A stretch of 64,000 nt of DNA, taken from Lentisphaeria bacterium (lineage in GTDB: Bacteria; Verrucomicrobiota; Lentisphaeria; Oligosphaerales; CAITYL01). The DNA lies in assembly GCA_041648735.1 (NCBI GenBank), contig JBAZOO010000005.1, positions 1,862 through 65,861 of the forward strand. The letters run 5' to 3'. This document shows, one piece after another, positions 13,518-58,154 of the stretch. Numbering within the stretch: position 1 is the first letter of the stretch; each line of letters opens with the position of its first letter. Under the pieces are notes generated by a model. The model had not been told where the DNA came from. It made no database searches and was given only the letters and a program-made list of their open reading frames with translations. The position numbers were made by a program, and so were the translations under genes.

Positions 13518-16310
13518 TCAGTAGCGGAAGTCGGGGATTCCGCGGACTTCGCTGCTGCGCATCGGCAGGCCGGAGGGATAGACCAGGCGCGGCGTGACGA
13601 AGATCAGGAGGTTGTATTTCTCCTTGTTCTTGCCGGAGGAGTGGAAGAGGCGGCCGATGAGGGGGAGGTCGCCGAGGAGCGGCACCTTGTCCTTGTAGGT
13701 GGTCTCCCGCTCGCCGATGAAGCCGCCGAGGACGACGGTCTCGCCGTCCCAGACGATCACGTTGGTCTCGACGGTGCGTTCGTCGAAGATCGGCATGTTG
13801 TAGAGCCACTCACTCTCCACCGCACCAGTCTCCGAATTTATCCGGCGAGGGCTGTTCAGGGAGGTGTCATAGCCGAGGAACTCGCGGACTTCCGGCTTCA
13901 GTTCGAGGCTGATGGAGTACTTGTCGGCGCCGACGACCGGGGTGACGGTGAGGATCACGCCGACGTCGGTGGCCTCGTCGTCAAACTGCGGTTCGGCGGC
14001 GGGGAGTTCAACGACTGTCGTACCAGTGCCGGTTCCACCACCGACGTTGACGTCCGGGTTTTCCCAGGAGGAGACGAACCTCTGGCGCTTGGCCTTGCGC
14101 AGGACGGCGGTCTTGCCGCTGATGGTGGTGACCTTGGGCGCGGAGAGGATGTCGGCCGAGCCGCTCTGGCTGAGGGCGTCCATGACCACCGAGAAGTCGG
14201 CGTCGCCGATGATGGCGCGGCCGTTGAGGATGGAAGTGGCCAAGGAGGTGGGGAGGCCGAGGCCGGTGGTCGCGCTGCGCAGGCCGGAGGTGATGGTGCT
14301 GGGGTTCATGACGCCGGTGGTGGTGCCGCGGATGAGCTTGCCGGTCTCGGCGAACGGGACCAGCACGGGGTTACCGGTGATCGGGTCGATTGCCGATCCG
14401 GGGACGCTGGAGCTTCCGATGTTGTTGTTCAGGGTCCACTGGAAACCGAACATGTCGAGGTTCTTCATGGAGACCTCGACGAACTTCGCCTCGATCGTCA
14501 CCTGTGGGGTGGGGGTGTTGACTTCCAGCATGAGATCCTCGAACTTGCGCAACTGCTCGGGGGTGTTGCGCACGACCAGCTTGCTGGTGCGGGGGTTGAA
14601 GGAGACGCTGGCGCCACGGGGGAACTCGACGCCCATGCCGCTGAAGAATCCCATCAGGCGGGCGCTGTCGTTCACCATCCCTTCGCCGCCGCCGCCGCCG
14701 ACTTCCTGGGCGGCTTCACCGCCGAGGCCGCCGAGCCCCGTGGCGGTGGTTTTCTGGGCGAAGACCTCGATCACGCCGGGCTCGATCGGGAAGAAGCGGG
14801 TCTCCATGGGATCCAGCTCGACGCTCTTGTCGGCGATCACCACGGCGTGGGTTTCGATGCGGTACTTCAGGCCGGCCGCCTGGCAGACATACTGCAGCGC
14901 CGAGCCGAGCGGGACGTTGGTGATGCTCATGGTGACGGTGCGGCTGGTGACGGGGGGCAGCGCCGCCATTGCCGCGGGGGCGGGGGCGGGCTCCAATTCG
15001 CCAAAGCCGACTCCGGGTTCAGCGCCAAACTCGGGGGCGGGGGCGGGGGCGGCGGGTTCCAGGCGGGGGGCGGTGCCGGCGGGGGCGGTTTCCTGGTGGA
15101 AGATGATGTTGACGCCTTCGCCGGTCTCCTTGTCATAGTCCTTGCTCATCTTGCGGAGATAGGCGACCACTTGCGGGATGGTGGCCTCCTCGAATTCGAG
15201 CGACGGGACGATGATGGTCTGGAGCTTGGCGCGGATGCCGGAGAGCTTGCCGACGCCCTCGAGCCCCGGCCCTTCGGGCTGGGCGCGCGGCACCGGCACC
15301 GGCTCGACCCAGGACCAGCGGGTCTTGGCCATGCGCTCCTTGATCGTGGTTTCGCGGCGGGCGTCGCCGGCCTCTTCCATCTTGACGTAGAGCTGGCGCA
15401 GGGCGCGGGTGGCGGTGGGGTGGTAGGGGTCGCGGAGCAGGACGCGCTCGAACATGTCGCGGGCGTCGCTGTAGCGGCGGTTGGCCATCAGCACCTTGCC
15501 CTGTTCGACCATGGTCTCGAGGCTGGTCTCGCGCTCCGGCTTTTCCGGGTCGATGTAGGCTTCGGCGGTCGCGGCGCGGAACTTGATGTCGCGCTTGGCG
15601 GCGAACATCTCCTTGATCCGCGCGTCCATCTCCGTCTGCATTTTCGGATTGGCCTTTGCGGCCTCGTCGCAGCGGCGGATCGCTTCGTCGTACTTGCCTT
15701 CGTCGGCGAACTTTTCCCCCTGCCGCTCCAGGTCGTCGGCCCAGGCCGCGTAGACGTCACCCTTGGCTTCGACGATCTTGCCGTGCCGGGCGAGGACCGC
15801 CTTGTCGCTGCTGCTGACCTTGGACCAGGCGGCGTCCGCCTGGGCATACTTTTCCAGGGCATCCTTGTACTGGCCGGCGCGGAGGGCCTTGGCGGCCTCG
15901 GTTTCGAGCTGCTGGGCCTTGAGCCGCTGCTCCTCCCGCTGGATCCGTTCCCGCTGCGATTCCTGTTCCACCACGGAAGCGGCGGCGGTGGGTTCGCCCA
16001 TCGCGGGCGCGACCGTTTCGGCGGCGGCGGGGGCTGTGGCGGGTTCGGCAACTTCGGGCTTGGGGGCCTCGGCGGCGGCGGGAACGGCGGCTTCCGCGGC
16101 CGGCGCTTCGGCGGCCTCGGCTTCAGGGGCGGCTTCCGCGGCCGGCGCGGCGGGGGCTTCGGCTTCAGGAGCGGCGGCCGGTTCCGGCGTCACGGCGGCG
16201 GCGGCTTCCTCTTGCGCTTGGGCGACGGGCAAGGCAAGGAAGAGAAGAGACGCCGCCCCGGTGAGGGAGCAGACGACCAAGTGGCGAATCCACGCACGCT
16301 GGTTTTGCAT
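13518..16310 (-). CDS. pilQ: Secretin (type II/type IV pilus secretin family, PilQ/GspD-like; Amuc_1098-like position)
   Basis: C-terminal secretin signature VPLLGDLPLIGRLFHSSGKNKEKYNLLIFVTPRLV. Signal peptide after MQNQRAWIRHLVV...AQAQ (ATG 16310, AGGAGA RBS). Ala/Glu/Pro-rich and TPR-like N-terminal region. Confidence 0.85.
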   Translation of the reverse strand: MQNQRAWIRHLVVCSLTGAASLLFLALPVAQAQEEAAAAVTPEPAAAPEAEAPAAPAAEAAPEAEAAEAPAAEAAVPAAAEAPKPEVAEPATAPAAAETVAPAMGEPTAAASVVEQESQRERIQREEQRLKAQQLETEAAKALRAGQYKDALEKYAQADAAWSKVSSSDKAVLARHGKIVEAKGDVYAAWADDLERQGEKFADEGKYDEAIRRCDEAAKANPKMQTEMDARIKEMFAAKRDIKFRAATAEAYIDPEKPERETSLETMVEQGKVLMANRRYSDARDMFERVLLRDPYHPTATRALRQLYVKMEEAGDARRETTIKERMAKTRWSWVEPVPVPRAQPEGPGLEGVGKLSGIRAKLQTIIVPSLEFEEATIPQVVAYLRKMSKDYDKETGEGVNIIFHQETAPAGTAPRLEPAAPAPAPEFGAEPGVGFGELEPAPAPAAMAALPPVTSRTVTMSITNVPLGSALQYVCQAAGLKYRIETHAVVIADKSVELDPMETRFFPIEPGVIEVFAQKTTATGLGGLGGEAAQEVGGGGGEGMVNDSARLMGFFSGMGVEFPRGASVSFNPRTSKLVVRNTPEQLRKFEDLMLEVNTPTPQVTIEAKFVEVSMKNLDMFGFQWTLNNNIGSSSVPGSAIDPITGNPVLVPFAETGKLIRGTTTGVMNPSTITSGLRSATTGLGLPTSLATSILNGRAIIGDADFSVVMDALSQSGSADILSAPKVTTISGKTAVLRKAKRQRFVSSWENPDVNVGGGTGTGTTVVELPAAEPQFDDEATDVGVILTVTPVVGADKYSISLELKPEVREFLGYDTSLNSPRRINSETGAVESEWLYNMPIFDERTVETNVIVWDGETVVLGGFIGERETTYKDKVPLLGDLPLIGRLFHSSGKNKEKYNLLIFVTPRLVYPSGLPMRSSEVRGIPDFRY

Positions 16311-26579: not shown

Positions 26580-28469
26580 ATGGCCACCCCTGATTTCGCT
26601 TCCGCCATCCGTGATCGCGTCCTGGTTTTTGACGGGGCCATGGGCACCGAGCTGTACCGGCGCCACGTCTTCACCAACCGCTGCTTCGACGAGCTGTGCG
26701 TCTCCTCGCCGGAGCTGGTCCGCGAGATCCACCAGGCCTACGCCGCGGCGGGGGCGGACGTGCTGACGACCAATTCCTACGGGGCCAACCGCCTGGCGCT
26801 GGGGCGCTATGGCTTCGGCGAGCAGGTGGCGGCGATCAACCGGGCGGCGGCGGCGGTGGCGCGCGCCGTGGCGGATGCGGCGGCGGGCGGGCGGCTGTTG
26901 GTCGCCGGCTCGGTGGGGCCAGTGCCGGCCACCGGCACGGACGCCGCCGGGCGGGTGGCAATGATGGCCGAGCAGATCGGGGCGCTGGCCGCCGGCGGGG
27001 CGGACTTGATCCTTTTTGAGACCTTGCCGAACCGGGAGGCGGCGGTGGAGGGCTGCCAGGCGATCCAGGCGGCCGCGGCGGGGCGGCCGTTCGTGCTGTC
27101 GTTCGCGGCGTATGACGACGACGACCGGACGATCGCCGAAACGCTCGGCCGGCTGCTGGCACCGCTGCCCGCCGGGCTGCCGGCGCCGGCGGCCCTCGGC
27201 TTCAACTGCGGCGCCGGCCCGGAACGGCTGCTGGCGGTGCTGGAGCGGGCGGTGCGCCTGACCGCGCTGCCGCTGGTCGTCCAGCCCAACGCTGGCCAGC
27301 CGCGGCTGGTGGAGAACCGCCAGCTCTACCTGTGCTCCCCCGAATACCTGACGAGCTATGCCCGGCGCTATGTGGAGCTTGGCGCCCGTGCCGTTGGCGG
27401 CTGCTGCGGCACCACGCCGGAGCACATCCGCGAGGTGGCGCGGGCGATCAAGCCGCTGGCGCGCCAACGGCTGGAGATCAAGGAGATCACGCCGCCGGCC
27501 GAGGCGCCGCTCAAGGCGCCGCTGCCGCTGGCGGAGAAGTCGCGGCTGGGGTGGAAGCTGGCCAACCGGCAGTGGGTGACCACGGTGGAGCTGCTGCCGC
27601 CCCGCGGCCATGAGCTGGCCGAGGTGGTGGCGAAGGCGGAACTCTGCCACCGGCGGGGGGTTGACGCGGTGAACATCCCCGACGGGCCGCGGGCGGCGCC
27701 CCGGCTGTCGCCGCTGGTCACCGCGCTGCGGCTCCAGGAGCGGGCCCGGATCGACACCGTGCTGCATGTCTGCTGCCGCGACCGCAACGTCATCAGCCTG
27801 CAGGCCGACCTGCTGGCCTGTGCCGCCTGCGGAGTCCGCAACCTGCTGTTCATCACCGGCGATCCGCCGAAGCTGGGCAACTACAGTTTTGCCTCGGGGG
27901 TGTTCGACACCGATTCCATCGGGCTGGTGGGGTTGCAGGCGCGGCTGAACCGTGGCGTCGACTTGGGGGGGCAGGTGGTCGAGCCGGCCACGGCGGCGGC
28001 GATTGGCGTCGGCGCCGACCCGGGTGCCCTGGATTTCGACCGGGAGGTGCGCCGCTTCCGCGCCAAGGTGGCGGCCGGCGCGGAGTTCGCCATCACCCAG
28101 CCGGTCTTCGCGGTGGCGCCGCTCTTCCGCTTCCTTGATGCCATTGCGGACTTGGAGATCCCGGTGATCGCCGGGATTTGGCCGCTGGCCAGCCTGCGCA
28201 ACGCCCTGTTCCTGAAGCATGAAGTGCCTGGCGTCACCGTTCCGGACGCGCTCATCAGCCGGATGGCGGCGGTGGCGACGAAGGAGGGGCAGCGGCAGGC
28301 CGGGATCGAGATCGCGCGGGAGGCGGTCGTCGCGGTCCGTGGCCGGGTGGCGGGGATCCAGGTCAGCGCGCCGTTGGGGAATGTGCTGACGGCGTTGGCG
28401 GTGGCGGAGTGTCCGGTGGTGTTGGCGGGCGCTGACGCTCCTGGGCGAGCTTGGTGCGGCCAGGCCTGA
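26580..28469 (+). CDS. yitJ: Bifunctional homocysteine S-methyltransferase / 5,10-methylenetetrahydrofolate reductase (YitJ-type fusion)
   Basis: The N-terminus is FDGAMGTELY...ADVLTTNSYGAN...GGCCGTTPEHI (Hcy-binding domain). The C-terminal half is MTHFR-like: TVELLPPRG...HVCCRDRN...LFITGDPP. Confidence 0.85.
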   Translation: MATPDFASAIRDRVLVFDGAMGTELYRRHVFTNRCFDELCVSSPELVREIHQAYAAAGADVLTTNSYGANRLALGRYGFGEQVAAINRAAAAVARAVADAAAGGRLLVAGSVGPVPATGTDAAGRVAMMAEQIGALAAGGADLILFETLPNREAAVEGCQAIQAAAAGRPFVLSFAAYDDDDRTIAETLGRLLAPLPAGLPAPAALGFNCGAGPERLLAVLERAVRLTALPLVVQPNAGQPRLVENRQLYLCSPEYLTSYARRYVELGARAVGGCCGTTPEHIREVARAIKPLARQRLEIKEITPPAEAPLKAPLPLAEKSRLGWKLANRQWVTTVELLPPRGHELAEVVAKAELCHRRGVDAVNIPDGPRAAPRLSPLVTALRLQERARIDTVLHVCCRDRNVISLQADLLACAACGVRNLLFITGDPPKLGNYSFASGVFDTDSIGLVGLQARLNRGVDLGGQVVEPATAAAIGVGADPGALDFDREVRRFRAKVAAGAEFAITQPVFAVAPLFRFLDAIADLEIPVIAGIWPLASLRNALFLKHEVPGVTVPDALISRMAAVATKEGQRQAGIEIAREAVVAVRGRVAGIQVSAPLGNVLTALAVAECPVVLAGADAPGRAWCGQA

Positions 28470-28561
28470 CCAAAGAAAAGCGGACTCCGCGGCCCTGGGG
28501 GCGCAGAGTCCACTGGGGAAACGAGCCTAGCAGTTGCCGCCGGCCGCCACGGACGCGGTGG
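28463..28561. repeat. 99-bp direct repeat, copy 1 (left boundary of island 1)
   Basis: GGCCTGACCAAAGAAAAGCGGACTCCGCGGCCCTGGGGG...GAAACGAGCCTAGCAGTTGCCGCCGGCCGCCACGG. Matches 33101-33199 with 4 substitutions and no indel. Confidence 0.9.
28470..28513 (-). terminator. Degenerate copy of the motif-hairpin terminator (downstream of the methyltransferase operon)
   Basis: Minus strand reads GTGGACTCTGC..loop..GCGGAGTCCGC then TTTTCTTTGG. Two stem mismatches relative to the copy at 33108-33151. Confidence 0.35.
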
Positions 28562-32706: not shown

Positions 32707-33168
32707 ATGAACGATCTGAACAAGGTCCTGATCACCGGCAACCTGGTGTGCGACCCCGAGTGCAAGCAACTGCCAGCCGGCAGCCGGGCCTGCGAACTCC
32801 GCATCGGCGTCAACCGCCAGTTCAACGACCGGGAAGGAACGGCCAAGACGGAAGCCTGCTTCGTCAACATTGACCTGTTCGGCGCCGTGGCCGAAATCGC
32901 CGGCAACTCCCTGCGGCGCGGTTCCGCCGTGTTCATCGAGGGGCGGCTCAAGCTCGACCAATGGGAGGACAAGCAAAGCGGCAAGCGCCTGAGCCGCCTC
33001 CGGATCATTGGCGAGCAGGTGCGTTGCCTCCAGCCGGTGGCTGCCGGCCGCGCCGCCGCCCCGAAACCCTTGGCGGCGGCGCCTTCCCCAGCGGCATCCC
33101 GGCCTGACCAAAGAAAAGCGGACTCCGCGGCCCTGGGGGGGCGGAGTCCGCTGGGGAAACGAGCCTAG
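32707..33168 (+). CDS. ssb: Single-stranded DNA-binding protein, OB fold intact, canonical acidic C-terminal tip absent
   Basis: LNKVLITGNLVCDPECKQLP...CFVNIDLFGAVAEIAGNSLRRGSAVFIEGRLKLDQWEDK. The last ~23 codons (from 33101) are encoded by the 99-bp repeat and end ...SPLGKRA instead of a D-D-D-I-P-F-type tip. Confidence 0.85.
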   Translation: MNDLNKVLITGNLVCDPECKQLPAGSRACELRIGVNRQFNDREGTAKTEACFVNIDLFGAVAEIAGNSLRRGSAVFIEGRLKLDQWEDKQSGKRLSRLRIIGEQVRCLQPVAAGRAAAPKPLAAAPSPAASRPDQRKADSAALGGRSPLGKRA

Positions 33169-33199
33169 CAGTTGCCGCCGGCCGCCACGGGCGCGGTGG
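33101..33199. repeat. 99-bp direct repeat, copy 2 (right boundary of island 1)
   Basis: See copy 1. This copy carries the intact inverted pair GCGGACTCCGC / GCGGAGTCCGC. Confidence 0.9.
33108..33151 (-). terminator. Rho-independent terminator of the GGGtGRT/NifU-like operon, built from an inverted pair of the abundant motif
   Basis: Minus strand reads GCGGACTCCGC-11 nt loop-GCGGAGTCCGC (perfect 11-bp stem) followed by TTTTCTTTGG. Lies 64 nt after the stop at 33215. Confidence 0.6.
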
Positions 33200-50307: not shown

Positions 50308-51081
50308 ATGATCATCGGCATTTGCGGCGAGCCGGCACGGAGCGGCCTCTTCGCCGCCATGGGATTCCAGTTCCTGGAAGTGAACATCCAGGAGATGCTG
50401 GTGCCACTGGCGCCCGAGGCGGAGTTCGCGCCGAAGCTGGCGGAATTGCGGAGTTCGCGCCTGCCGGTCAAGGCCGCCAACTGCTTCTTTCCCGCCGGCC
50501 TCAAGCTCACCGGGCCCGCAGTTGATCCCGGGCGGCTCCTGGCCTATGCGGCGACCGCCTGCGAGCGGGCCGGGCGGGCCGGCATCGAGACGCTGGTCCT
50601 CGGCTCCGGCGGCGCCCGCCAGATCCCCGAGGGGTTCCCGCGGGAAGCGGCCGGGGAGCAGCTCCTGGCATTTGCCAAGAGCCTCGGCCCGGTGGCGGCC
50701 AAGGCCGGAGTGACGGTCGTCCTGGAACCGCTCAACAGCAAGGAATGCAACGTGTTCAACACGGTGCCGGAATGCGCGGCCTTCGTCCGCCAAGTCAACC
50801 ATCCCGCCATCCGCCTGCTGGTGGACGCCTACCACTGGTGCCAGGAAGGGGAGGGCGCGGCGGATTTGTTGGCGGCCGCGCCGCTCCTCGCCCATGCCCA
50901 CCTCGCCTCCTGCCCCAACCGCCGCGGCCCCGGCGAGGAGGCGTGCGACTATTCCGCCTTCTTCCAGGCGCTCCAGGCCGGCGGCTATGCGGGCCGGCTC
51001 GCGGTGGAGGCCATCTGGCTCGACCTCGAGCGCAATGGCGCCGCCGCCGTCCGCCTCCTCGAACGCCTCCTGGCGGCCTGA
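50308..51081 (+). CDS. Sugar phosphate isomerase/epimerase (xylose isomerase-like TIM barrel), intact copy
   Basis: Start MIIGICG at 50308. VVLEPLNSKECNVFNT...LLVDAYHW...AHAHLAS. Confidence 0.8.
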   Translation: MIIGICGEPARSGLFAAMGFQFLEVNIQEMLVPLAPEAEFAPKLAELRSSRLPVKAANCFFPAGLKLTGPAVDPGRLLAYAATACERAGRAGIETLVLGSGGARQIPEGFPREAAGEQLLAFAKSLGPVAAKAGVTVVLEPLNSKECNVFNTVPECAAFVRQVNHPAIRLLVDAYHWCQEGEGAADLLAAAPLLAHAHLASCPNRRGPGEEACDYSAFFQALQAGGYAGRLAVEAIWLDLERNGAAAVRLLERLLAA

Positions 51082-51122
51082 TCCCAATTCAACTTCCGTG
51101 AAGGCAAACGGCCGGGGCCGGC

Positions 51123-52283
51123 TCAGGGGATTTCGAGGCAAGCCGGGGCGCGGGTCAGCTTTTCGCAGCCGCCGGCGGTGACCACGACCACGTCCTCCAG
51201 GCGGATGCCGCCCCAGGCCGGGTCGTAGGTGCCGGGCTCGACGGTGATGACCTCCCCTTCCCGCAACGGCTCGGTGGCGGTGGAATTGACCCGCGGCGCC
51301 TCATGCACCTCCAGCCCGAGCCCGTGGCCGAGGCCGTGGAAGAAGCCGACGGGCGGATTGGCGTCCAGATCGGTGGGGAAGCCGGCGGCGTCGAGGACAC
51401 CCTTGGCGGCGAGGTGGATCTCCTTGGGGATCGCGCCGGCCCGGACCAGGGCGAGGGCCGTTTCCTGGGCCTGGCGCACCGCCGCCCAGGCCCGGCGGAC
51501 GACCGGGGCCGCCTCCCCCTTGACCACCGTCCGGGTGAGGTCGCCGAAGTAGCCGGTGCGGTCCACCCGCGGGAAGATGTCGAGCACCAACGGCTCGTGG
51601 GCGCGGATCGGCCCTTCGCCGGCCTGGTGCGGATCGGCCCCTTGCGCCCCCGGGGCCACAATGGTGTGCGCCGCGGTGCCGCCGGCCCGGGCGATGGCGG
51701 CGGCGATTTCGCCCCGGAGCCGCTCGGCGGTGAGTGCCGCCCCCTCCCACCACAGGATCCGGTCGGGGCCGGGGACGGCCTCGCGGAGGATCGCCAGCGC
51801 CCGGTCGAGGCCGAGTTCGGCCAGGGCCACCCCGTCCCGGATCCGGGCGACTTCCGCCACATCCTTCCGTTGCCGCTCGGGGAAGAAACGGTCGACGGGC
51901 ACCACCTCCAGCCCGGCGGCGGCCAGCTTCCGCGCCAGCCCGCAGGGCGTCGCCGCCGGCGTCTCCCAGCGATCCAGCCCATGCCGCCGGGCCAGCGTGG
52001 CCAGCACGGCCTCCGGTGGCAGCTTGACGGTGGACTCCAACCCGTAGCGCTCGCGGAACTCCTGCTCGGCCAGCACGGCGACGCCGGGCCGCACCGCCTT
52101 GCGGGCACGGCCGACCTCCAGCGGGCTCAGCAGCGCCGCCGTCAGCCCCGGCACGGCGAACCAGAGGAAGGCATCCGGCGTCTGCAAGCCGGTGGCATAG
52201 AGCATGTCGGCGGAACTTTCGCCGGCGGCCCAGATGAAGCGGCCGGTGGCGATGGCGGCGTTGGCGGTGGCGGCATCCGTCAT
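51123..52283 (-). CDS. pepP: Xaa-Pro aminopeptidase (M24B), copy 1
   Basis: Start MTDAATANA at 52283. HGLGHGLGLEVHE, VITVEPG, IRLEDVV. Confidence 0.85.
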   Translation of the reverse strand: MTDAATANAAIATGRFIWAAGESSADMLYATGLQTPDAFLWFAVPGLTAALLSPLEVGRARKAVRPGVAVLAEQEFRERYGLESTVKLPPEAVLATLARRHGLDRWETPAATPCGLARKLAAAGLEVVPVDRFFPERQRKDVAEVARIRDGVALAELGLDRALAILREAVPGPDRILWWEGAALTAERLRGEIAAAIARAGGTAAHTIVAPGAQGADPHQAGEGPIRAHEPLVLDIFPRVDRTGYFGDLTRTVVKGEAAPVVRRAWAAVRQAQETALALVRAGAIPKEIHLAAKGVLDAAGFPTDLDANPPVGFFHGLGHGLGLEVHEAPRVNSTATEPLREGEVITVEPGTYDPAWGGIRLEDVVVVTAGGCEKLTRAPACLEIP

Positions 52284-52330
52284 GGAACTCTCCGGGATGG
52301 GCTGGACAGCCCCCAACATAATCGCGGATT

Positions 52331-52399
52331 CCGATTCCCGGTTGCCGGTTGCCGATTCCCGGGTGCCGGTTGCCGATTCCCGGGTGCCGGTTGCCGAAT
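52331..52399. repeat. 21-bp tandem repeat, 3.3 units (1.3 units in the duplicate at 57265-57293)
   Basis: CCGATTCCCGG(T/G)TGCCGGTTG occurs three times, then CCGAATTGG. Lies between the pepP start and the GT9 fragment. Accounts for the 42-bp length difference between the two large repeats. Confidence 0.9.
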
Positions 52400-52410
52400 T
52401 GGAACCTGGC

Positions 52411-52504
52411 TCAGAGGCAATGGCAGCGGCCCAAGGGACGCCACACCCGCGGCTCGGTGGCGACGAACCGCGCCAGCACCGGGATCCCCAGCGCCGCCGC
52501 CAGG
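52411..52504 (-). pseudogene. 3'-terminal fragment (28 codons + stop) of the GT9 glycosyltransferase gene
   Basis: AALGIPVLARFVATEPRVWRPLGRCHCL is identical to the end of the intact gene at 57303-58154. Homology stops at 52504. Confidence 0.8.
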
Positions 52505-52708
52505 ATTGCCGCCCTGCCGCGCCTGGAGCTGGCCGCCACCACCACCGGAGCCGCCACGGGGCCGGCGGAGCCCGACCGCGCCGCCCTGCTGGCCGCCCTG
52601 GCACGCCTGGCGGACTCCGCACCCACGGAAGCCGTCCGCCGGGCCGTGGCGCTGCTGCGGGAGGGCGGGAAGATTCCCCCCAATGGGCAATGGCAAGTCG
52701 GCCGCTGA
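52505..52708 (+). pseudogene. Probable 3' remnant of an unidentified high-GC gene at the inner junction
   Basis: The open frame reads ...PDRAALLAALARLADSAPTEAVRRAVALLREGGKIP and ends at 52708. It has no own start and carries one copy of the abundant host motif (52610). Confidence 0.35.
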
Positions 52709-52727
52709 CCCAAGGAGGGTTCCATCA

Positions 52728-52943
52728 ATGGGAACGCAAAAAATCTGCTTGGACTGCCGCCTACGCTTCCCCATGGACGCCAAGGCGTGCCCCCGCTGCG
52801 GGGGGGATGAATACGGCATCGAGGCCGGCGAGATCACTGCCCCCCCGTTCCCGAAACCGCCAGAAGGGACCGCGCCGCCGCCAATCTCTTGGGTTTTCGC
52901 TTGTGTGCCCAGAACGCGGTGTGCTATATTGGCCACGCCTTGA
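52728..52943 (+). CDS. Small zinc-ribbon protein (71 aa), possibly truncated
   Basis: AAGGAGGG RBS 8 nt upstream. MGTQKICLDCRLRFPMDAKACPRCGG (CxxC-N12-CxxC) then a Pro-rich tail. Ends exactly where GC content drops. Confidence 0.4.
   Translation: MGTQKICLDCRLRFPMDAKACPRCGGDEYGIEAGEITAPPFPKPPEGTAPPPISWVFACVPRTRCAILATP
52901..52930 (+). promoter_or_regulatory. Possible promoter of the island-2 cassette
   Basis: TTGTGT-N18-TATATT, about 145 nt upstream of the ATG at 53075. Confidence 0.25.
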
Positions 52944-53074
52944 ATCCGTTATACCGGCTGTCTGCGGAACGCCGGGGCAGGAGACACTGCAAGAACAGGA
53001 ACGATGGCTGTCCGTTGAGTAGCGGTCGGCACTGACGGAAACGTGGGCAACGACGAGTAGAGAGGAAGTGCATC

Positions 53075-53527
53075 ATGGCGCAGTGTGTTACTTGCGGGGC
53101 AAGTCTGAAACCGGGGGCAACACGGTGCGTTAAATGTGGAACTGCGCTGGAAGTGGTTGCACCACCTCCACAAGCGCAACAGCCACAGTATGCGCCCCCT
53201 GCACAACCGTATCCTCAACAACCGCAGGTACGCTATGTTCAGCAACCGCAGCAGGCCCAAGCGCCCCGTTGTACCAAGAGCAAGACGACGGCTGCCACCC
53301 TTGCCATCCTGCTGGGCGCACTGGGTGTTCACAAGTTCTATCTCGGCAAGAAGTGGCAAGGCTTTCTCTACCTTTTCTTCCTCGACATCTCTATTAGCAA
53401 CGCATTGTGCGATGGCGAGTTGATATTATGGGTGCCGAAGATCCTGTGGTTTTTCGGATTGTGCGAGGGGATCTATTACTCGACGATGAAAGAAGAAGTG
53501 TTTTGCCAGAAGTACGGCCAGAAGTAG
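53075..53527 (+). CDS. Zinc-ribbon + Pro/Gln-rich linker + TM2-domain membrane protein
   Basis: MAQCVTCGASLKPGATRCVKCG. PQ-rich linker. LAILLGALGVHKFYLGKKWQG is the TM2-domain signature. RBS AGAGGAAG. Confidence 0.75.
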   Translation: MAQCVTCGASLKPGATRCVKCGTALEVVAPPPQAQQPQYAPPAQPYPQQPQVRYVQQPQQAQAPRCTKSKTTAATLAILLGALGVHKFYLGKKWQGFLYLFFLDISISNALCDGELILWVPKILWFFGLCEGIYYSTMKEEVFCQKYGQK

Positions 53528-53541
53528 GAGGGTTCATCGCC

Positions 53542-54351
53542 ATGACTTCACACATTCAAAGACCGACCCCAATGAAGTTTGTGTTGGCGGTGATCGGATT
53601 GACCGCCACGGCCATACTTGTGACCGCGACAGGTGGCTACCTTGTAACCGAACCACCAAGAGGCTTCATGGTTTGGGTTGGGATTGGGTTCTTATGTACA
53701 ATCGAATTCCTTGCAGGAATTCTGACGGTCAACATCTTCGCTCGTGCTCGCTGCGAGTACCGGCCAAGCGGCGCGATACTGGCAATAACTTATGGCATCA
53801 TCGGGGCGTTTGCAGCATCCGGGTTGCTGAGCATCGTGGTGTACTGGGTATTGCGGGACAGCGAGGGATCGAAGGACGGGGCTTTCACTGCCGCCATGAT
53901 GGCAATTACCGTCTTCTGGTTCATCGTTGCAGTCGTGTTATACGCATATGATTTGCACAGTCAGGCGGTCGCGCGCCCGTCCAAGGAGAAGCGTGCAGAA
54001 CACAAGAACGTCGCCAAGTCACTAGCACCGCTACTGTCCGCTCTTCGTGCATTCAAGACCACGGACGACAGCGTGCGCACCCGTGTTTCCGTAGCGCTAA
54101 AGAAGCTTGAATCCATTGATGGTGCCTTTTCGCATTCTTACGGAGGTGGCATGGGATCATGGGAAGGAGGGCGCCAACATCCTTCTCCATCAGGTGAAGA
54201 TCAAACACTTCAAGAGAACGCCGGAAGATTGGCGAGTCTCGCCCCTCGGTTCTCAGGTGGGATCGCAACCGATGTTGGATCGACGCTAACCGAAATTGAA
54301 CAATGCATTGAAACAGTGTCGCGATCTTTGGACGAGGTTGAGCTTCGATAG
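53542..54351 (+). CDS. Four-TM membrane protein with ~110-aa cytoplasmic C-terminal helical domain, unknown family
   Basis: AGGAGGG RBS. Four hydrophobic segments lie between residues ~10 and 150, followed by KEKRAEHKNVAKSLAPLLSALRAF...LTEIEQCIETVSRSLDEVEL. Sits 14 nt after the previous gene. Confidence 0.6.
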   Translation: MTSHIQRPTPMKFVLAVIGLTATAILVTATGGYLVTEPPRGFMVWVGIGFLCTIEFLAGILTVNIFARARCEYRPSGAILAITYGIIGAFAASGLLSIVVYWVLRDSEGSKDGAFTAAMMAITVFWFIVAVVLYAYDLHSQAVARPSKEKRAEHKNVAKSLAPLLSALRAFKTTDDSVRTRVSVALKKLESIDGAFSHSYGGGMGSWEGGRQHPSPSGEDQTLQENAGRLASLAPRFSGGIATDVGSTLTEIEQCIETVSRSLDEVELR

Positions 54352-54363
54352 GAGGAATCAGCC

Positions 54364-55383
54364 ATGCCAATTCTTGACATCATTGAGTTCTTTGACGACA
54401 CAGGTGAAATTATAGTCTCCAAGATCCCGTACGAAAGATCAGGTGAGTTTCGGCTTGGCACTCAACTTGTTGTACAGGAAAGTCAAAATGCCATCTTCTT
54501 CCGCGATGGACAAGCCTTGGATGGTTTTGGGCCAGGTCGCCATACGCTTTCTACTCAGAACCTGCCGCTCTTGGGCAGGATCATTGGCGCGCCTTTTGGA
54601 GGCAAGTCGCCTTTCAGAAGCTATGTCTATTTTATTGCCACAAAGACGTTCATCAATCTTGGTTGGGGAACTCAGTCGCCTGTTTTGTTCCGTGATACTG
54701 ATTTCCGCATGATTAGCCTTCGCGCACACGGGGCGTTTTCCGTCCGAATAGTGAAGCCGAGAACCTTTCTCAATACACTTGTTGGAACGCGCGGGATGGA
54801 GACGACCTTTGCTTTGGAGGAATTCTTCAGGACTGTGATCGTGTCGAGACTGAACGAGGCGCTCGGGTCGATAATGAAGTCTATTCTCGACCTTCCCGTT
54901 CACTACAACACAATCGCTTTGAAAACCAAAGAAGCCGTCGCTACGGATTTCGATCAGTATGGCATCCAGCTAGTCGACCTTCTGGTTCAAGCGATAACCC
55001 CGCATCCAGAAGTCCAAGAAATGATTAATCGTGCAAGTGGGGTTGCCGCGCAGGATGCGGAGAAGTACAAGCAAATTGCAGCGGCAGATGCCATGAGAGA
55101 CGCTGCAAAGAATCCCGGCGGCTTAGCTGGCGATGGAATGGGGGCTGGCATGGGTCTCGCGCTTGGGTTCGGCATGGCTCAACAGATGGCGCAAGGACTC
55201 GCGCCGACCCGACCGTCAGATGCGCGTCCGACAGGTGCCAGCCCACGAGAAACTGCCTCATCTAAGATGTCGCCGTCTGAATTGAAGACAAAACTGAAGG
55301 AGTTGAAGGAACTCAAGGATGAGGGGCTCATTGGCGACGCTGACTTTGAAGAGCAAAAGCGCCGACTATTGACCATGATTTAG
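54364..55383 (+). CDS. SPFH/band-7 superfamily protein of the YdjI / COG4260 (virion-core-like) type with C-terminal SHOCT-like motif
   Basis: ILDIIEFFDDTGEIIVSKIP...GTQLVVQESQNAIFFRDGQALDGFGPGRHTLSTQNLPLL matches the COG4260 N-terminus as I recall it. C-terminal LKELKELKDEGLIGDADFEEQKRRLL is SHOCT-like. GGAGG RBS, 12 nt after the previous stop. Confidence 0.8.
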   Translation: MPILDIIEFFDDTGEIIVSKIPYERSGEFRLGTQLVVQESQNAIFFRDGQALDGFGPGRHTLSTQNLPLLGRIIGAPFGGKSPFRSYVYFIATKTFINLGWGTQSPVLFRDTDFRMISLRAHGAFSVRIVKPRTFLNTLVGTRGMETTFALEEFFRTVIVSRLNEALGSIMKSILDLPVHYNTIALKTKEAVATDFDQYGIQLVDLLVQAITPHPEVQEMINRASGVAAQDAEKYKQIAAADAMRDAAKNPGGLAGDGMGAGMGLALGFGMAQQMAQGLAPTRPSDARPTGASPRETASSKMSPSELKTKLKELKELKDEGLIGDADFEEQKRRLLTMI

Positions 55384-55557
55384 AGAGCCAAACAAGGGCC
55401 TGACCGGCGCGGGGCCGCGCGTGGTCTTGATTACCTTGCGTCAACCAACCGTACCGCCTTCCTGCGCCACGTCGCCTTCTTCAGAGACGGGTAAGCTTCT
55501 GCAACCTGCCCCCGCCGCCAGGCGAACGGGATGCGCTCCACACGGCAACCCCGGATG

Positions 55558-56015
55558 TCCCCGAGGGGTTCCCGCGGGAGGCGGCCGGGGAGCAGCTCCT
55601 GGCATTTGCCAAGAGCCTCGGCCCGGTGGCGGCCAAGGCCGGGGTGACGGTCGTCCTGGAACCGCTCAACAGCAAGGAATGCAACGTGTTCAACACGGTG
55701 CCGGAATGCGCGGCCTTCGTCCGCCAAGTCAACCATCCCGCCATCCGCCTGCTGGTGGACGCCTACCACTGGTGCCAGGAAGGGGAGGGCGCGGCGGATT
55801 TGTTGGCGGCCGCGCCGCTCCTCGCCCATGCCCACCTCGCCTCCTGCCCCAACCGCCGCGGCCCCGGCGAGGAGGCGTGCGACTATTCCGCCTTCTTCCA
55901 GGCGCTCCAGGCCGGCGGCTATGCGGGCCGGCTCGCGGTGGAGGCCATCTGGCTCGACCTCGAGCGCAATGGCGCCGCCGCCGTCCGCCTCCTCGAACGC
56001 CTCCTGGCGGCCTGA
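55558..56015 (+). pseudogene. 3' fragment of the sugar phosphate isomerase gene (duplicate, lacks the first ~105 codons)
   Basis: Near-identical to 50624-51081. Homology begins abruptly at 55558. Confidence 0.85.
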
Positions 56016-56056
56016 TCCCAATTCAACTTCCGTGAAGGCAAACGGCCGGGGCCGGC

Positions 56057-57217
56057 TCAGGGGATTTCGAGGCAAGCCGGGGCGCGGGTCAGCTTTTCGC
56101 AGCCGCCGGCGGTGACCACGACCACGTCCTCCAGGCGGATGCCGCCCCAGGCCGGGTCGTAGGTGCCGGGCTCGACGGTGATGACCTCCCCTTCCCGCAA
56201 CGGCTCGGTGGCGGTGGAATTGACCCGCGGCGCCTCATGCACCTCCAGCCCGAGCCCGTGGCCGAGGCCGTGGAAGAAGCCGACGGGCGGATTGGCGTCC
56301 AGATCGGTGGGGAAGCCGGCGGCGTCGAGGACACCCTTGGCGGCGAGGTGGATCTCCTTGGGGATCGCGCCGGCCCGGACCAGGGCGAGGGCCGTTTCCT
56401 GGGCCTGGCGCACCGCCGCCCAGGCCCGGCGGACGACCGGGGCCGCCTCCCCCTTGACCACCGTCCGGGTGAGGTCGCCGAAGTAGCCGGTGCGGTCCAC
56501 CCGCGGGAAGATGTCGAGCACCAACGGCTCGTGGGCGCGGATCGGCCCTTCGCCGGCCTGGTGCGGATCGGCCCCTTGCGCCCCCGGGGCCACAATGGTG
56601 TGCGCCGCGGTGCCGCCGGCCCGGGCGATGGCGGCGGCGATTTCGCCCCGGAGCCGCTCGGCGGTGAGTGCCGCCCCCTCCCACCACAGGATCCGGTCGG
56701 GGCCGGGGACGGCCTCGCGGAGGATCGCCAGCGCCCGGTCGAGGCCGAGTTCGGCCAGGGCCACCCCGTCCCGGATCCGGGCGACTTCCGCCACATCCTT
56801 CCGTTGCCGCTCGGGGAAGAAACGGTCGACGGGCACCACCTCCAGCCCGGCGGCGGCCAGCTTCCGCGCCAGCCCGCAGGGCGTCGCCGCCGGCGTCTCC
56901 CAGCGATCCAGCCCATGCCGCCGGGCCAGCGTGGCCAGCACGGCCTCCGGTGGCAGCTTGACGGTGGACTCCAACCCGTAGCGCTCGCGGAACTCCTGCT
57001 CGGCCAGCACGGCGACGCCGGGCCGCACCGCCTTGCGGGCACGGCCGACCTCCAGCGGGCTCAGCAGCGCCGCCGTCAGTCCCGGGACGGCGAACCAGAG
57101 GAACGGATCCGGCGTCTGCAACCCGGTGGCATAGAGCATGTCGGCGGAACTTTCGCCGGCGGCCCAGATGAAGCGGCCGGTGGCGATGGCGGCGTTGGCG
57201 GTGGCGGCATCCGTCAT
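56057..57217 (-). CDS. pepP: Xaa-Pro aminopeptidase (M24B), copy 2
   Basis: Same length as copy 1. Differs in a few N-terminal residues (for example TPDPFLW versus TPDAFLW). Confidence 0.85.
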   Translation of the reverse strand: MTDAATANAAIATGRFIWAAGESSADMLYATGLQTPDPFLWFAVPGLTAALLSPLEVGRARKAVRPGVAVLAEQEFRERYGLESTVKLPPEAVLATLARRHGLDRWETPAATPCGLARKLAAAGLEVVPVDRFFPERQRKDVAEVARIRDGVALAELGLDRALAILREAVPGPDRILWWEGAALTAERLRGEIAAAIARAGGTAAHTIVAPGAQGADPHQAGEGPIRAHEPLVLDIFPRVDRTGYFGDLTRTVVKGEAAPVVRRAWAAVRQAQETALALVRAGAIPKEIHLAAKGVLDAAGFPTDLDANPPVGFFHGLGHGLGLEVHEAPRVNSTATEPLREGEVITVEPGTYDPAWGGIRLEDVVVVTAGGCEKLTRAPACLEIP

Positions 57218-57302
57218 GGAACTCTCCGGGATGGGCTGGAAAGTCCTCAACATAATCGCGGATTCCGATTCCCGGTTGCCGGTTGCCGAATTGGAACCTG
57301 GC

Positions 57303-58154
57303 TCAGAGGCAATGGCAGCGGCCCAAGGGACGCCACACCCGCGGCTCGGTGGCGACGAACCGCGCCAGCACCGGAATCCCCAGCGCCGCCGCCAGGTGCG
57401 ACACCCCCGAGTCGTTGCCCACAAACCGCCGCGCCCGCCGCCGCAGCGCCGCCGCCAGTTCCGCCAACGCCAAACCCTCCACCACTTCCGCCGCGACGCC
57501 GGCCGCCGCCAGCGCCGCCAGCACCGGCCCGCGCACGGCGGCGTCCGCCTCCCCGAACGAGACCACCACCGGCGCCCCGGCCGTCCGGAGCCGCCAGCGC
57601 CGGGCGACCTCCGCAAACCAGGCCGGCGCCGCGTTCTTCCGCGGGCTCCCGCTCCCCGGATGCAGCCACAGCGCGGCCGCCTCCCGGTTGCGGCCCGCCG
57701 CGGCCGGCTTCCCCCAGGACGCCAGTTGCGGAGTCCGCAACAAGTCGGCGGGGACGGGCAGGCCGGCGGCGCGCAGGAAGCTGGCGGCGGCGGGTTCCGG
57801 GCCGGTGGGGCGGGGGGGGATCCAGGTGGGCGTGATCCCGTGCCGGGCCAGGTTCGCGGCGAGGGTGGGATCCGCTGCCAGGAAGGCCAGGAACCGCCCG
57901 CCGCGCCAGGTTTCCGGCAGCGTTGCGGACTCCGCAAACAAGGCTGTGCCGGCCGCGGAGTCCGCATCCCGGAAGGTGATGGCCGTGGCCAGTTCCGGCG
58001 GCAGCAGGGGGCGGTAGGCGGGGCGGGAGAGCAGGATGACCGGATCGCCGCGCCGGAGCAGTTCCCGCAGCAGCGGCAGGGTCAGCAGGAAATCGCCGAG
58101 GGCGCCGTTGCGGTAGACGATGGCCGGGGCCTGGGCGGGGCGGCCGGCGCCCAT
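57303..58154 (-). CDS. Glycosyltransferase family 9 (heptosyltransferase-like), intact copy
   Basis: IVYRNGALGDFLLTLPLLREL...FVGNDSGVSHLAAALGIPVLARF. Its ATG overlaps the stop of the upstream TPR gene by 1 nt. Confidence 0.8.
   Translation of the reverse strand: MGAGRPAQAPAIVYRNGALGDFLLTLPLLRELLRRGDPVILLSRPAYRPLLPPELATAITFRDADSAAGTALFAESATLPETWRGGRFLAFLAADPTLAANLARHGITPTWIPPRPTGPEPAAASFLRAAGLPVPADLLRTPQLASWGKPAAAGRNREAAALWLHPGSGSPRKNAAPAWFAEVARRWRLRTAGAPVVVSFGEADAAVRGPVLAALAAAGVAAEVVEGLALAELAAALRRRARRFVGNDSGVSHLAAALGIPVLARFVATEPRVWRPLGRCHCL

Follow-up and report, generated by a model that had tools for sequence, protein, structure and literature searches.

Direct repeats of a 1.9-kb gene segment around a YdjGHI-like module in an uncultured Lentisphaerota lineage: a candidate case of integrase-free, single-crossover integration

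Campbell-type integration brings non-replicating circles, in the F-prime or R-prime style, into a chromosome through host homologous recombination, with neither an integrase nor an att site. We describe here a locus with this layout in a 64,000-nucleotide stretch of DNA (the window) from a Lentisphaeria bacterium (GenBank assembly GCA_041648735.1, contig JBAZOO010000005.1, positions 1,862 to 65,861), in which two direct copies of a 1.9-kb segment, R1 and R2, lie on either side of a 3.05-kb insert with a three-gene cargo. The shared segment holds the 3′ part of a xylose-isomerase-like gene (the isomerase), a whole gene for an M24 peptidase (pepP in the preliminary description of this DNA), and the 3′ end of a GT9 glycosyltransferase gene. 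As in Campbell-type integration, the homology is directly duplicated around the insert, the outer genes are intact and the inner copies are truncated. Unlike in the classical situation, there is no vector, replicon or marker here, the circular intermediate is a presumed one, and the shared segment looks like a random slice, with both ends inside genes, whose joining to the insert is unexplained. The event is of a known kind, found here in an uncultured Lentisphaerota lineage and with a YdjGHI-like cargo.

In the 'C-terminal displacement' model for Rhs and contact-dependent inhibition (CDI) systems, recombination between direct repeats is proposed to free a small circle of repeat plus cargo; the circle moves to another isolate and re-integrates there with no integrase, by one RecA-driven crossover that leaves the homology partly duplicated (Jackson et al. 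2009, PMC2935791). At our locus, in contrast, the homology is no conserved toxin core, the cargo is no toxin/immunity pair, and there is a single unit and no array of displaced tips. In the complex class 1 integrons with ISCR1, homologous recombination rescues a free circle that carries cargo together with part of a shared segment, and this segment is thereby duplicated around the cargo (model of Toleman et al. 2006, summarised in PMC6834847). Unlike those integrons, the window has no ISCR/IS91 transposase and no oriIS or terIS; a Y2_Tnp fragment was met only beside a homolog of the cargo on another contig (L090). A tandem duplication with an insertion at its join point likewise yields two direct copies that have foreign DNA between them. 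Such join-point insertions are mostly described with insertion sequence (IS) elements or short filler at the joint, and the differences between the two copies look allelic here, not newly arisen.

The repeat pair and the insert

Local alignment paired 50624-52342 with 55558-57276 and 52385-52504 with 57277-57396 (1839 aligned bases), and the recurrence of 50624-52504 at 55558-57396, as first described, proved exact. The two copies are in direct orientation and 99.4% identical, and with this length and identity a chance similarity is excluded. They differ by one 42-bp indel and by 11 substitutions, at 50646, 50709, 52146, 52152, 52170, 52172, 52188, 52307, 52310, 52313 and 52483; the 'about a dozen' substitutions of the preliminary description are thereby brought down to an exact count, and their clustering near the edges and the 42-bp difference in repeat number stood. 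The indel is due to two units of a 21-bp tandem repeat, CCGATTCCCGGGTGCCGGTTG, in the spacer between the GT9 and peptidase genes (3.2 units in R1 vs 1.2 units in R2).

All four edges of the repeats are sharp, with microhomology of no more than a base or two. The left edge cuts the isomerase gene in codon 106, and the GT9 3′ fragment ends abruptly at the junction with the insert (J1, 52504/52505). The genes at the outer edges, isomerase and GT9, are continuous, the inner ends are truncated copies, and the M24 peptidase gene is fully duplicated. Pfam and tblastn agree on this arrangement, which is the one that had been read from the DNA at the outset.

Six of the seven differing codons carry synonymous third-position changes (peptidase codons 32, 44 and 46; isomerase codons 113 and 134; GT9 codon 260). 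In the seventh, two changes (GCC to CCG) give A38P in the peptidase. Three of the differences lie inside the truncated, dead gene fragments, and all three are synonymous. Because six of seven codons are changed synonymously, including all of those in the dead fragments, the differences are allele-like, and the comparison of the copies points to alleles that diverged as working genes in separate strains rather than to decay after duplication. The donor from a related strain that was proposed earlier agrees with this. All of the differences lie ≤85 bp from the left edge or ≤358 bp from the right edge of the repeat, and the central 1436 bp are identical.

The insert (52505-55557, 3053 bp) is composite in its GC content, with parts of ~70-75%, 49-56% and ~65%. 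A low-GC three-gene module is embedded in DNA of host-like GC, 525 bp on its left and 155 bp on its right. This composite make-up with a three-gene cassette had been recognised before, and only the limits of the module had to be moved, from about 52.95-55.4 kb to ~53030-55403. A copy of an abundant window motif that had been placed in 52505-52945 is indeed present, at 52610-52620. As had been stated, no integrase or transposase is present, judged by Pfam over the insert and 10 kb on either side. No tRNA, tmRNA or known RNA family was found at the locus, no terminal inverted repeats were found, and there is no replication gene among the insert proteins.

Junctions and variants in other metagenomes

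By exact-protein index look-up of other assemblies, J1 was found with the same sequence in L001, L002, L003, L004 and L087, and the right-hand junction (J2, 55557/55558) in identical form in L001-L005. These contigs come from JGI 3300036987, 3300037046 and 3300037657, ENA ERZ27247363, and Logan SRR13051708 and SRR11844737; the junctions thus recur in at least six other metagenome samples, and the contig of L004 is recorded in four runs. Given this recurrence, we conclude that the junctions are real and not a one-off chimera. An exact look-up of the 83-aa open reading frame (ORF) that spans J1 returned one known contig only.

In the window, in L001 and in L087, R1 lies between the left flank (L) and the insert and is continuous with both. 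In L087, which comes from a further JGI sample, L, all of R1 and 556 bp of the insert are assembled, with R1-type variants throughout. The complete order L-R-insert-R-Rt (L and Rt being the two flanks) is present in the window and in a 144-kb JGI contig (L001/L057, JGI 3300036987), and L087 agrees with it without proving it, because the repeat exceeds short-read linkage. The 144-kb contig is 99.98% identical to the window and has only four differences from it. These four are paired, at 51776/51780 and at 56710/56714, where the JGI contig reads T,T and the window C,C. The pairing could be due to concerted evolution, or to one collapsed central edge that was threaded twice by the assembler.

The MEGAHIT k141 contigs of ERZ27247363 stop at 50850, 52005, 55784 and 56939, each exactly 141 nt from a variant site, and the Logan contigs stop at 50676, 52453 and 55610, each exactly 30 nt from one. 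Such breaks, k-1 or k bases from the variant sites in the repeat, mean that a single sample contains both R1-type and R2-type ends and that these run together into a common centre. There is no branching at the edges of the insert, and the insert is therefore single-copy and without another context. The claim that the structure is no trivial assembly artefact holds for the junctions; the linear order may be a resolved 'simple loop'.

The GT9-linked copy of the repeat has three haplotypes at its right end: TGCGC-ATT-A, CCGCG-ATT-A (L054, JGI 3300037046) and CCGCG-CCC-A (L058, JGI 3300037047). L089 (SRR11844784) also reads CCGCG-ATT; its contig stops within the repeat, short of the last site, and so has no link to GT9. 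The insert-linked ends do not vary among the contigs that cover them. A cluster of five single-nucleotide polymorphisms (52146-52188) and a cluster of three (52307-52313) occur in three combinations among L054, L089 and L058, from which it follows that recombination or gene conversion has taken place within this 360-bp stretch in the population.

L058 carries RecD2, the full isomerase and the peptidase, with no break at the left edge of the repeat. It has a 3-unit array and the GT9-linked base at 52483, and its end, TGCGAC, is the continuation into GT9 and not into the insert. Its private variants (50709 G, 51398-9 TC) show that it comes from a different strain. An exact look-up of the SPFH protein of the insert did not have sample 3300037047 among its returns. 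These features of L058 may point to an insert-free allele.

The comparison of the isomerase-pepP-GT9 order with related genomes, which the preliminary description had called for, went less far. In a peptidase search of genome representatives, the nearest genomes had 61-64% amino-acid identity and no shared neighbouring genes, which leaves L058 and its exit toward GT9 by 6 bases. A peptidase search of JGI metagenome contigs, in a collection that does not hold the source samples, was of no help on the ancestral order, and a literature search on the sample accessions found no papers.

Origin of the repeat-insert-repeat structure

In our view the data are best fitted by one homologous crossover of the chromosome with a circle of R plus insert, with a probability of about 0.55; this reading is not proven. 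The ancestral order would have been RecD2 - isomerase - M24 peptidase - GT9. A 4.9-kb circle, in which a copy of R (1.9 kb, with the isomerase 3′ part, M24 and the GT9 3′ end) was joined to the 3.05-kb insert, would have crossed over once with the chromosomal R through host homologous recombination, giving L-R1-insert-R2-Rt. In the product the outer genes would be intact, the peptidase doubled, and two dead gene fragments would face the insert. The R of the circle would have come from another strain of the same species, and the synonymous, allele-like differences would follow from that origin. The YdjG/YdjH/YdjI-like module would have entered orphan DNA of the same lineage before the circle event. 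Recombination between R1 and R2 could loop the circle out, and the circle could re-enter other strains, which would explain the presence of the structure in many samples and the possible insert-free allele. The data show the repeat, J1 and J2 and their recurrence, the single-copy state of the insert, the allele-like character of the differences, the identity of the cargo and the lack of integrase, transposase and tRNA genes; the circular intermediate, the single crossover, the transfer route and the origin of J1 and J2 are what we infer from the arrangement.

Campbell-type integration had been the first reading of this locus, and it is plausible and supported in part. Its topology is the expected one and J1 and J2 are reproducible, but the assembly graph also fits a free circle, and a duplication in situ gives the same picture. 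Several points weigh against the single crossover. No circle was observed; the graph is compatible with one and does not demonstrate it, since the integrated form and a single-copy chromosome accompanied by a free 4.9-kb circle give one and the same de Bruijn graph. For an R from another strain, it is odd that the centre is free of differences (P=5.6e-8 under uniform spread), and gene conversion or edge collapse must be invoked for this; assembly collapse, gene conversion and imports from the unique flanks are possible causes. The paired differences between the 144-kb contig and the window are expected if assemblers reuse one edge, and the identical centre, even the contiguity, may be assembler-made. 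Two illegitimate joints (J1, at GT9 52504; J2, at isomerase 50624) must predate the event, by an unexplained route, and the native locus of the insert was not found. The ancestral single-copy order is deduced from gene integrity alone, the nearest genomes being non-syntenic, and the empty site of L058 consists of one linked variant and 6 bases beyond the edge, for which a mis-threaded path is possible. That the integrated form is present in the chromosome is nevertheless quite probable.

A duplication in situ, with no circle and no homologous crossover, is the main rival but unlikely, although it accounts for much of the pattern. A linear insert fragment from a related strain would have been end-joined illegitimately to sister chromosomes at 52504 and 50624, so that R was doubled in tandem with the fragment at the joint. 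The copies would have been identical at first, and later homologous imports anchored in the flanks would have put alleles of other strains into their outer ends, on the left in R1 and on the right in R2. Differences that cluster at the edges and spare the central 1436 bp are the pattern expected from such imports, but the identity of the centre may come from the assembly, and the main argument of this model would then fall. The three haplotypes of the GT9-linked copy beside the invariant insert-linked ends also favour it; the left end, where the L-linked and insert-linked copies differ consistently in every sample (A,A vs G,G), needs a single early import. Two illegitimate joints are required, the same number as for circle formation, but both ends of one fragment must join the sister chromosomes in the right order. 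Documented cases in bacteria of a tandem-duplication joint that took up a 3-kb fragment are rare, and this counts against the model. The in-situ and circle models are not separated by these data.

We regard it as distinctly improbable that the linear order is an assembly artefact. The junctions would still be real, but a single-copy isomerase-M24-GT9 chromosome would coexist with a separate circular or concatemeric 4.9-kb molecule of R plus insert, or there would be a strain mixture, and the 'simple loop' would have been linearised. Both configurations should yield an identical graph, the paired sites at which the JGI contig departs from the window suggest one edge used twice, L058 threads L-R-GT9, and the MEGAHIT and Logan assemblies leave the region fragmented. 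However, a 4.9-kb circle without a replication gene should not persist at chromosome-like abundance in at least six samples, both versions of the repeat co-occur wherever checked, and L087 and two long contigs show the integrated order. Circle and integrated form interconvert by recombination anyway, so that the biology would be the same.

An origin within a single genome, by a large tandem duplication plus deletion or by template switching from the same chromosome in the manner of microhomology-mediated break-induced replication, is very improbable. The flanks of the insert are host-like in GC and carry the lineage motif, as such an origin would have it, but a second, native copy of the insert is needed. 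L004 crosses both edges of the insert and stops only at variants of the repeat, which leaves the insert no second context in that sample; exact look-ups of the SPFH protein, the TM2 protein and the 71-aa ORF returned this arrangement only, and the window has no further copy. With the insert in single copy, both routes were rejected. A site-specific island, a prophage remnant or a transposon, with the repeats as att sites or a target duplication, is hardly credible: the cargo is of lower GC and lies between direct repeats, and its closest homolog (L090) stands beside an IS91-like Y2_Tnp fragment, but the lack of any integrase, recombinase or transposase in the insert or within 10 kb, of tRNA and tmRNA genes and of terminal inverted repeats led to its rejection, no trace of the L090 transposase is found in the window, and 1.9 kb of ordinary genes is far beyond an att site or a target duplication.

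The single-crossover reading can be taken one step further. The 4.9-kb unit of repeat plus insert might be a self-propagating, integrase-free passenger, released as a circle by recombination between R1 and R2 and re-entering by a single crossover at the isomerase-M24-GT9 locus; this extension is doubtful. Spread among strains of this Lentisphaerota species would perhaps be by natural transformation, and the TGCGGA(C/G)TCCGCA copy in the insert might favour uptake. If this were true, a membrane-stress module would, in nature, be using a slice of core genes as its portable 'attachment site'.

Cargo, neighbouring genes and other repeats

The features of the locus are listed in Table 1.

Table 1. 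Features of the repeat-insert-repeat locus (positions in the window)
Feature	Position	Strand	Description
Isomerase, xylose-isomerase-like TIM-barrel (AP_endonuc_2), intact	50308-51081	+	Pfam E=8e-27; NCBIfam epimerase/isomerase matches weak, all below cutoff
Repeat copy R1	50624-52504 (1881 bp)		Isomerase 3′ part, whole M24 peptidase, 21-bp array, GT9 3′ fragment
M24 peptidase (Xaa-Pro type), copy 1, 386 aa	51123-52283	-	Pfam Peptidase_M24 E=3e-45; NCBIfam below cutoff
21-bp tandem repeat CCGATTCCCGGGTGCCGGTTG in GT9-M24 spacer	52331-52397 in R1; ~57265-57289 in R2		
GT9 3′ fragment, last 31 codons	52411-52504	-	tblastn to full GT9 residues 261-283
Remnant A, orphan coding-like stretch	52505-52708	+	Codon-position GC 0.82/0.65/0.85, resembles host genes
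71-aa CxxC...CxxC zinc-ribbon-like orphan ORF	52728-52943	+	Called by three gene-calling pipelines
Low-GC three-gene module	53030-55403	+	Limits from 71% nucleotide homology to L090/L091; GC 49-56%
Zn-ribbon + TM2 protein	53075-53527	+	Pfam Zn_Ribbon_1+TM2
269-aa membrane protein, no family	53542-54351	+	
SPFH protein, Band_7_1 + SHOCT tail	54364-55383	+	Pfam
High-GC tail of insert	55403-55557		Terminator-like hairpin 55407-55422; ends at J2
Possible 3′ remnant in insert tail (remnant B)	55431-55556	-	Too short to confirm as coding
Repeat copy R2	55558-57396 (1839 bp)		Runs on into full GT9 gene at right
Isomerase 3′ fragment, codons 106-257, without 5′ part	55558-56015	+	AP_endonuc_2 profile positions 114-233; tblastn 98.7%
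M24 peptidase, copy 2	56057-57217	-	A38P + three synonymous differences from copy 1
GT9 glycosyltransferase, intact	57303-58154	-	Pfam Glyco_transf_9

The cargo is like the pspA-ydjGHI (samGHI) membrane-stress operon of Bacillus subtilis in that it combines two membrane proteins, the first of them with a zinc ribbon, and a soluble SPFH/Band 7 protein. Unlike in B. subtilis, no PspA domain lies beside the module in any locus, the first protein has TM2, and the SPFH protein has SHOCT. We call the cargo YdjGHI-like by its gene architecture, and not by a sequence comparison with the B. subtilis proteins. Homologs of the SPFH protein at 70-90% identity occur in many phyla. In the fetched contexts of the module (L090-L096) the trio is always kept and the neighbours are unrelated; they include FRG/HTH genes in L092, and DUF4412 and PPK2 beside a ribosomal-protein cluster in L093. 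Judged from its contexts, the module is horizontally mobile. The closest homolog of the module is in L090 (ENA ERZ24794645), with a 90% identical SPFH protein. There, the module directly follows a 228-aa ORF, weakly matched by the IS91-family Y2_Tnp, and a 67-aa internally repetitive ORF (L090 115-801); this context hints that rolling-circle elements may carry the module between genomes. The transposase gene of L090 left no trace in the window. None of the four insert proteins matched a PADLOC defence model, and the SPFH matches on plasmids and phages are distant (<37%); a defence system and a phage or plasmid gene were accordingly rejected as identities of the cargo.

Remnant A, which carries the motif copy of the insert, had been called a gene remnant. 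Its host-like composition is confirmed and no homolog was found, so that we read it as a remnant from composition and not from homology. The 71-aa ORF matched only itself in 5.8 billion clusters and had no Pfam match, and a separate search with remnant A also matched only itself. A concatenated query of remnant A, the 71-aa ORF and remnant B gave no matches, not even itself, and was probably insensitive. The native locus of the insert's flanks was not found by these searches; from its GC and motif, the left flank of the insert is best read as DNA of the same lineage. When 55557 is joined to 52505, an in-frame ATG and a continuous phase of third-position GC result, but all six frames are open there and an agreement in phase has a 1-in-3 chance. 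That the insert is a former circle that captured R is a weak possibility.

Outside the insert, the intact GT9 gene lies upstream of peptidase copy 2 on the same strand, an operon-like context that is taken as native. The wider neighbourhood has RecD2 on the left, and a TPR gene, IspD and DapF on the right. Copy 2 would thus retain its native place downstream of TPR-GT9 on the minus strand, and copy 1 would have been severed from the TPR-GT9 context after 94 bp of GT9. The 5′ region of copy 1 has three substitutions (52307-52313, 3 bp apart) and two extra 21-bp units. Both the array difference and the substitutions at 52307, 52310 and 52313 lie just upstream of the peptidase start, where they might make for a regulatory difference between the copies. 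A promoter and terminator scan gave nothing over the shuffled expectation and was uninformative on the expression of copy 1, and an exact look-up of copy 2 as called returned no record.

The window motif is a near-palindrome, T-GCGGA(C/G)TCCGC-A, which occurs 18 times in the window vs 0.2 expected, mostly within genes and in both orientations. Its sites include 3425, 4187, 10454, 27829, 36660, 50116, 52610, 57728, 57925, 57955, 59400, 59775 and 59972; the one at 52610 lies in the insert, to the left of the module. Of the 98 fetched loci, 75 lack the motif, and the carriers are mostly fragments of this genome; elsewhere, the nearest relative (L007/L059, 13 kb) has two copies and L015 has one. 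It could be an iterated palindrome specific to the lineage (HIP1-like) or a signal of the uptake type. Two copies of a 102-nt direct repeat, 95% identical, lie 4638 bp apart at 28460-28561 and 33098-33199. Each has a hairpin made of two inverted motif copies (AGCGGACTCCGC...GCGGAGTCCGCT), and next to it the apparent 3′ end of a gene on the minus strand; the repeat may represent a shared terminator with paralogous gene ends, or the bracket of another insertion. A further tandem repeat with a 42-bp period (2.1-2.9 copies, score up to 145, very GC-rich) is at 16086-16208.

Natural gain of genes without an integrase, by a single homologous crossover, has been inferred far oftener than it has been documented. 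A caution applies: repeat-insert-repeat loops in metagenome contigs can be decisions of the assembler, and the 'identical centre' may be assembler-imposed. Here, the junctions of an uncultured, phylum-level lineage are seen in several independent metagenomes and the allelic differences point to exchange between strains. If confirmed, the locus would be a clean field case of accessory genes that enter a core locus without disrupting it, and double a peptidase gene as they do so.

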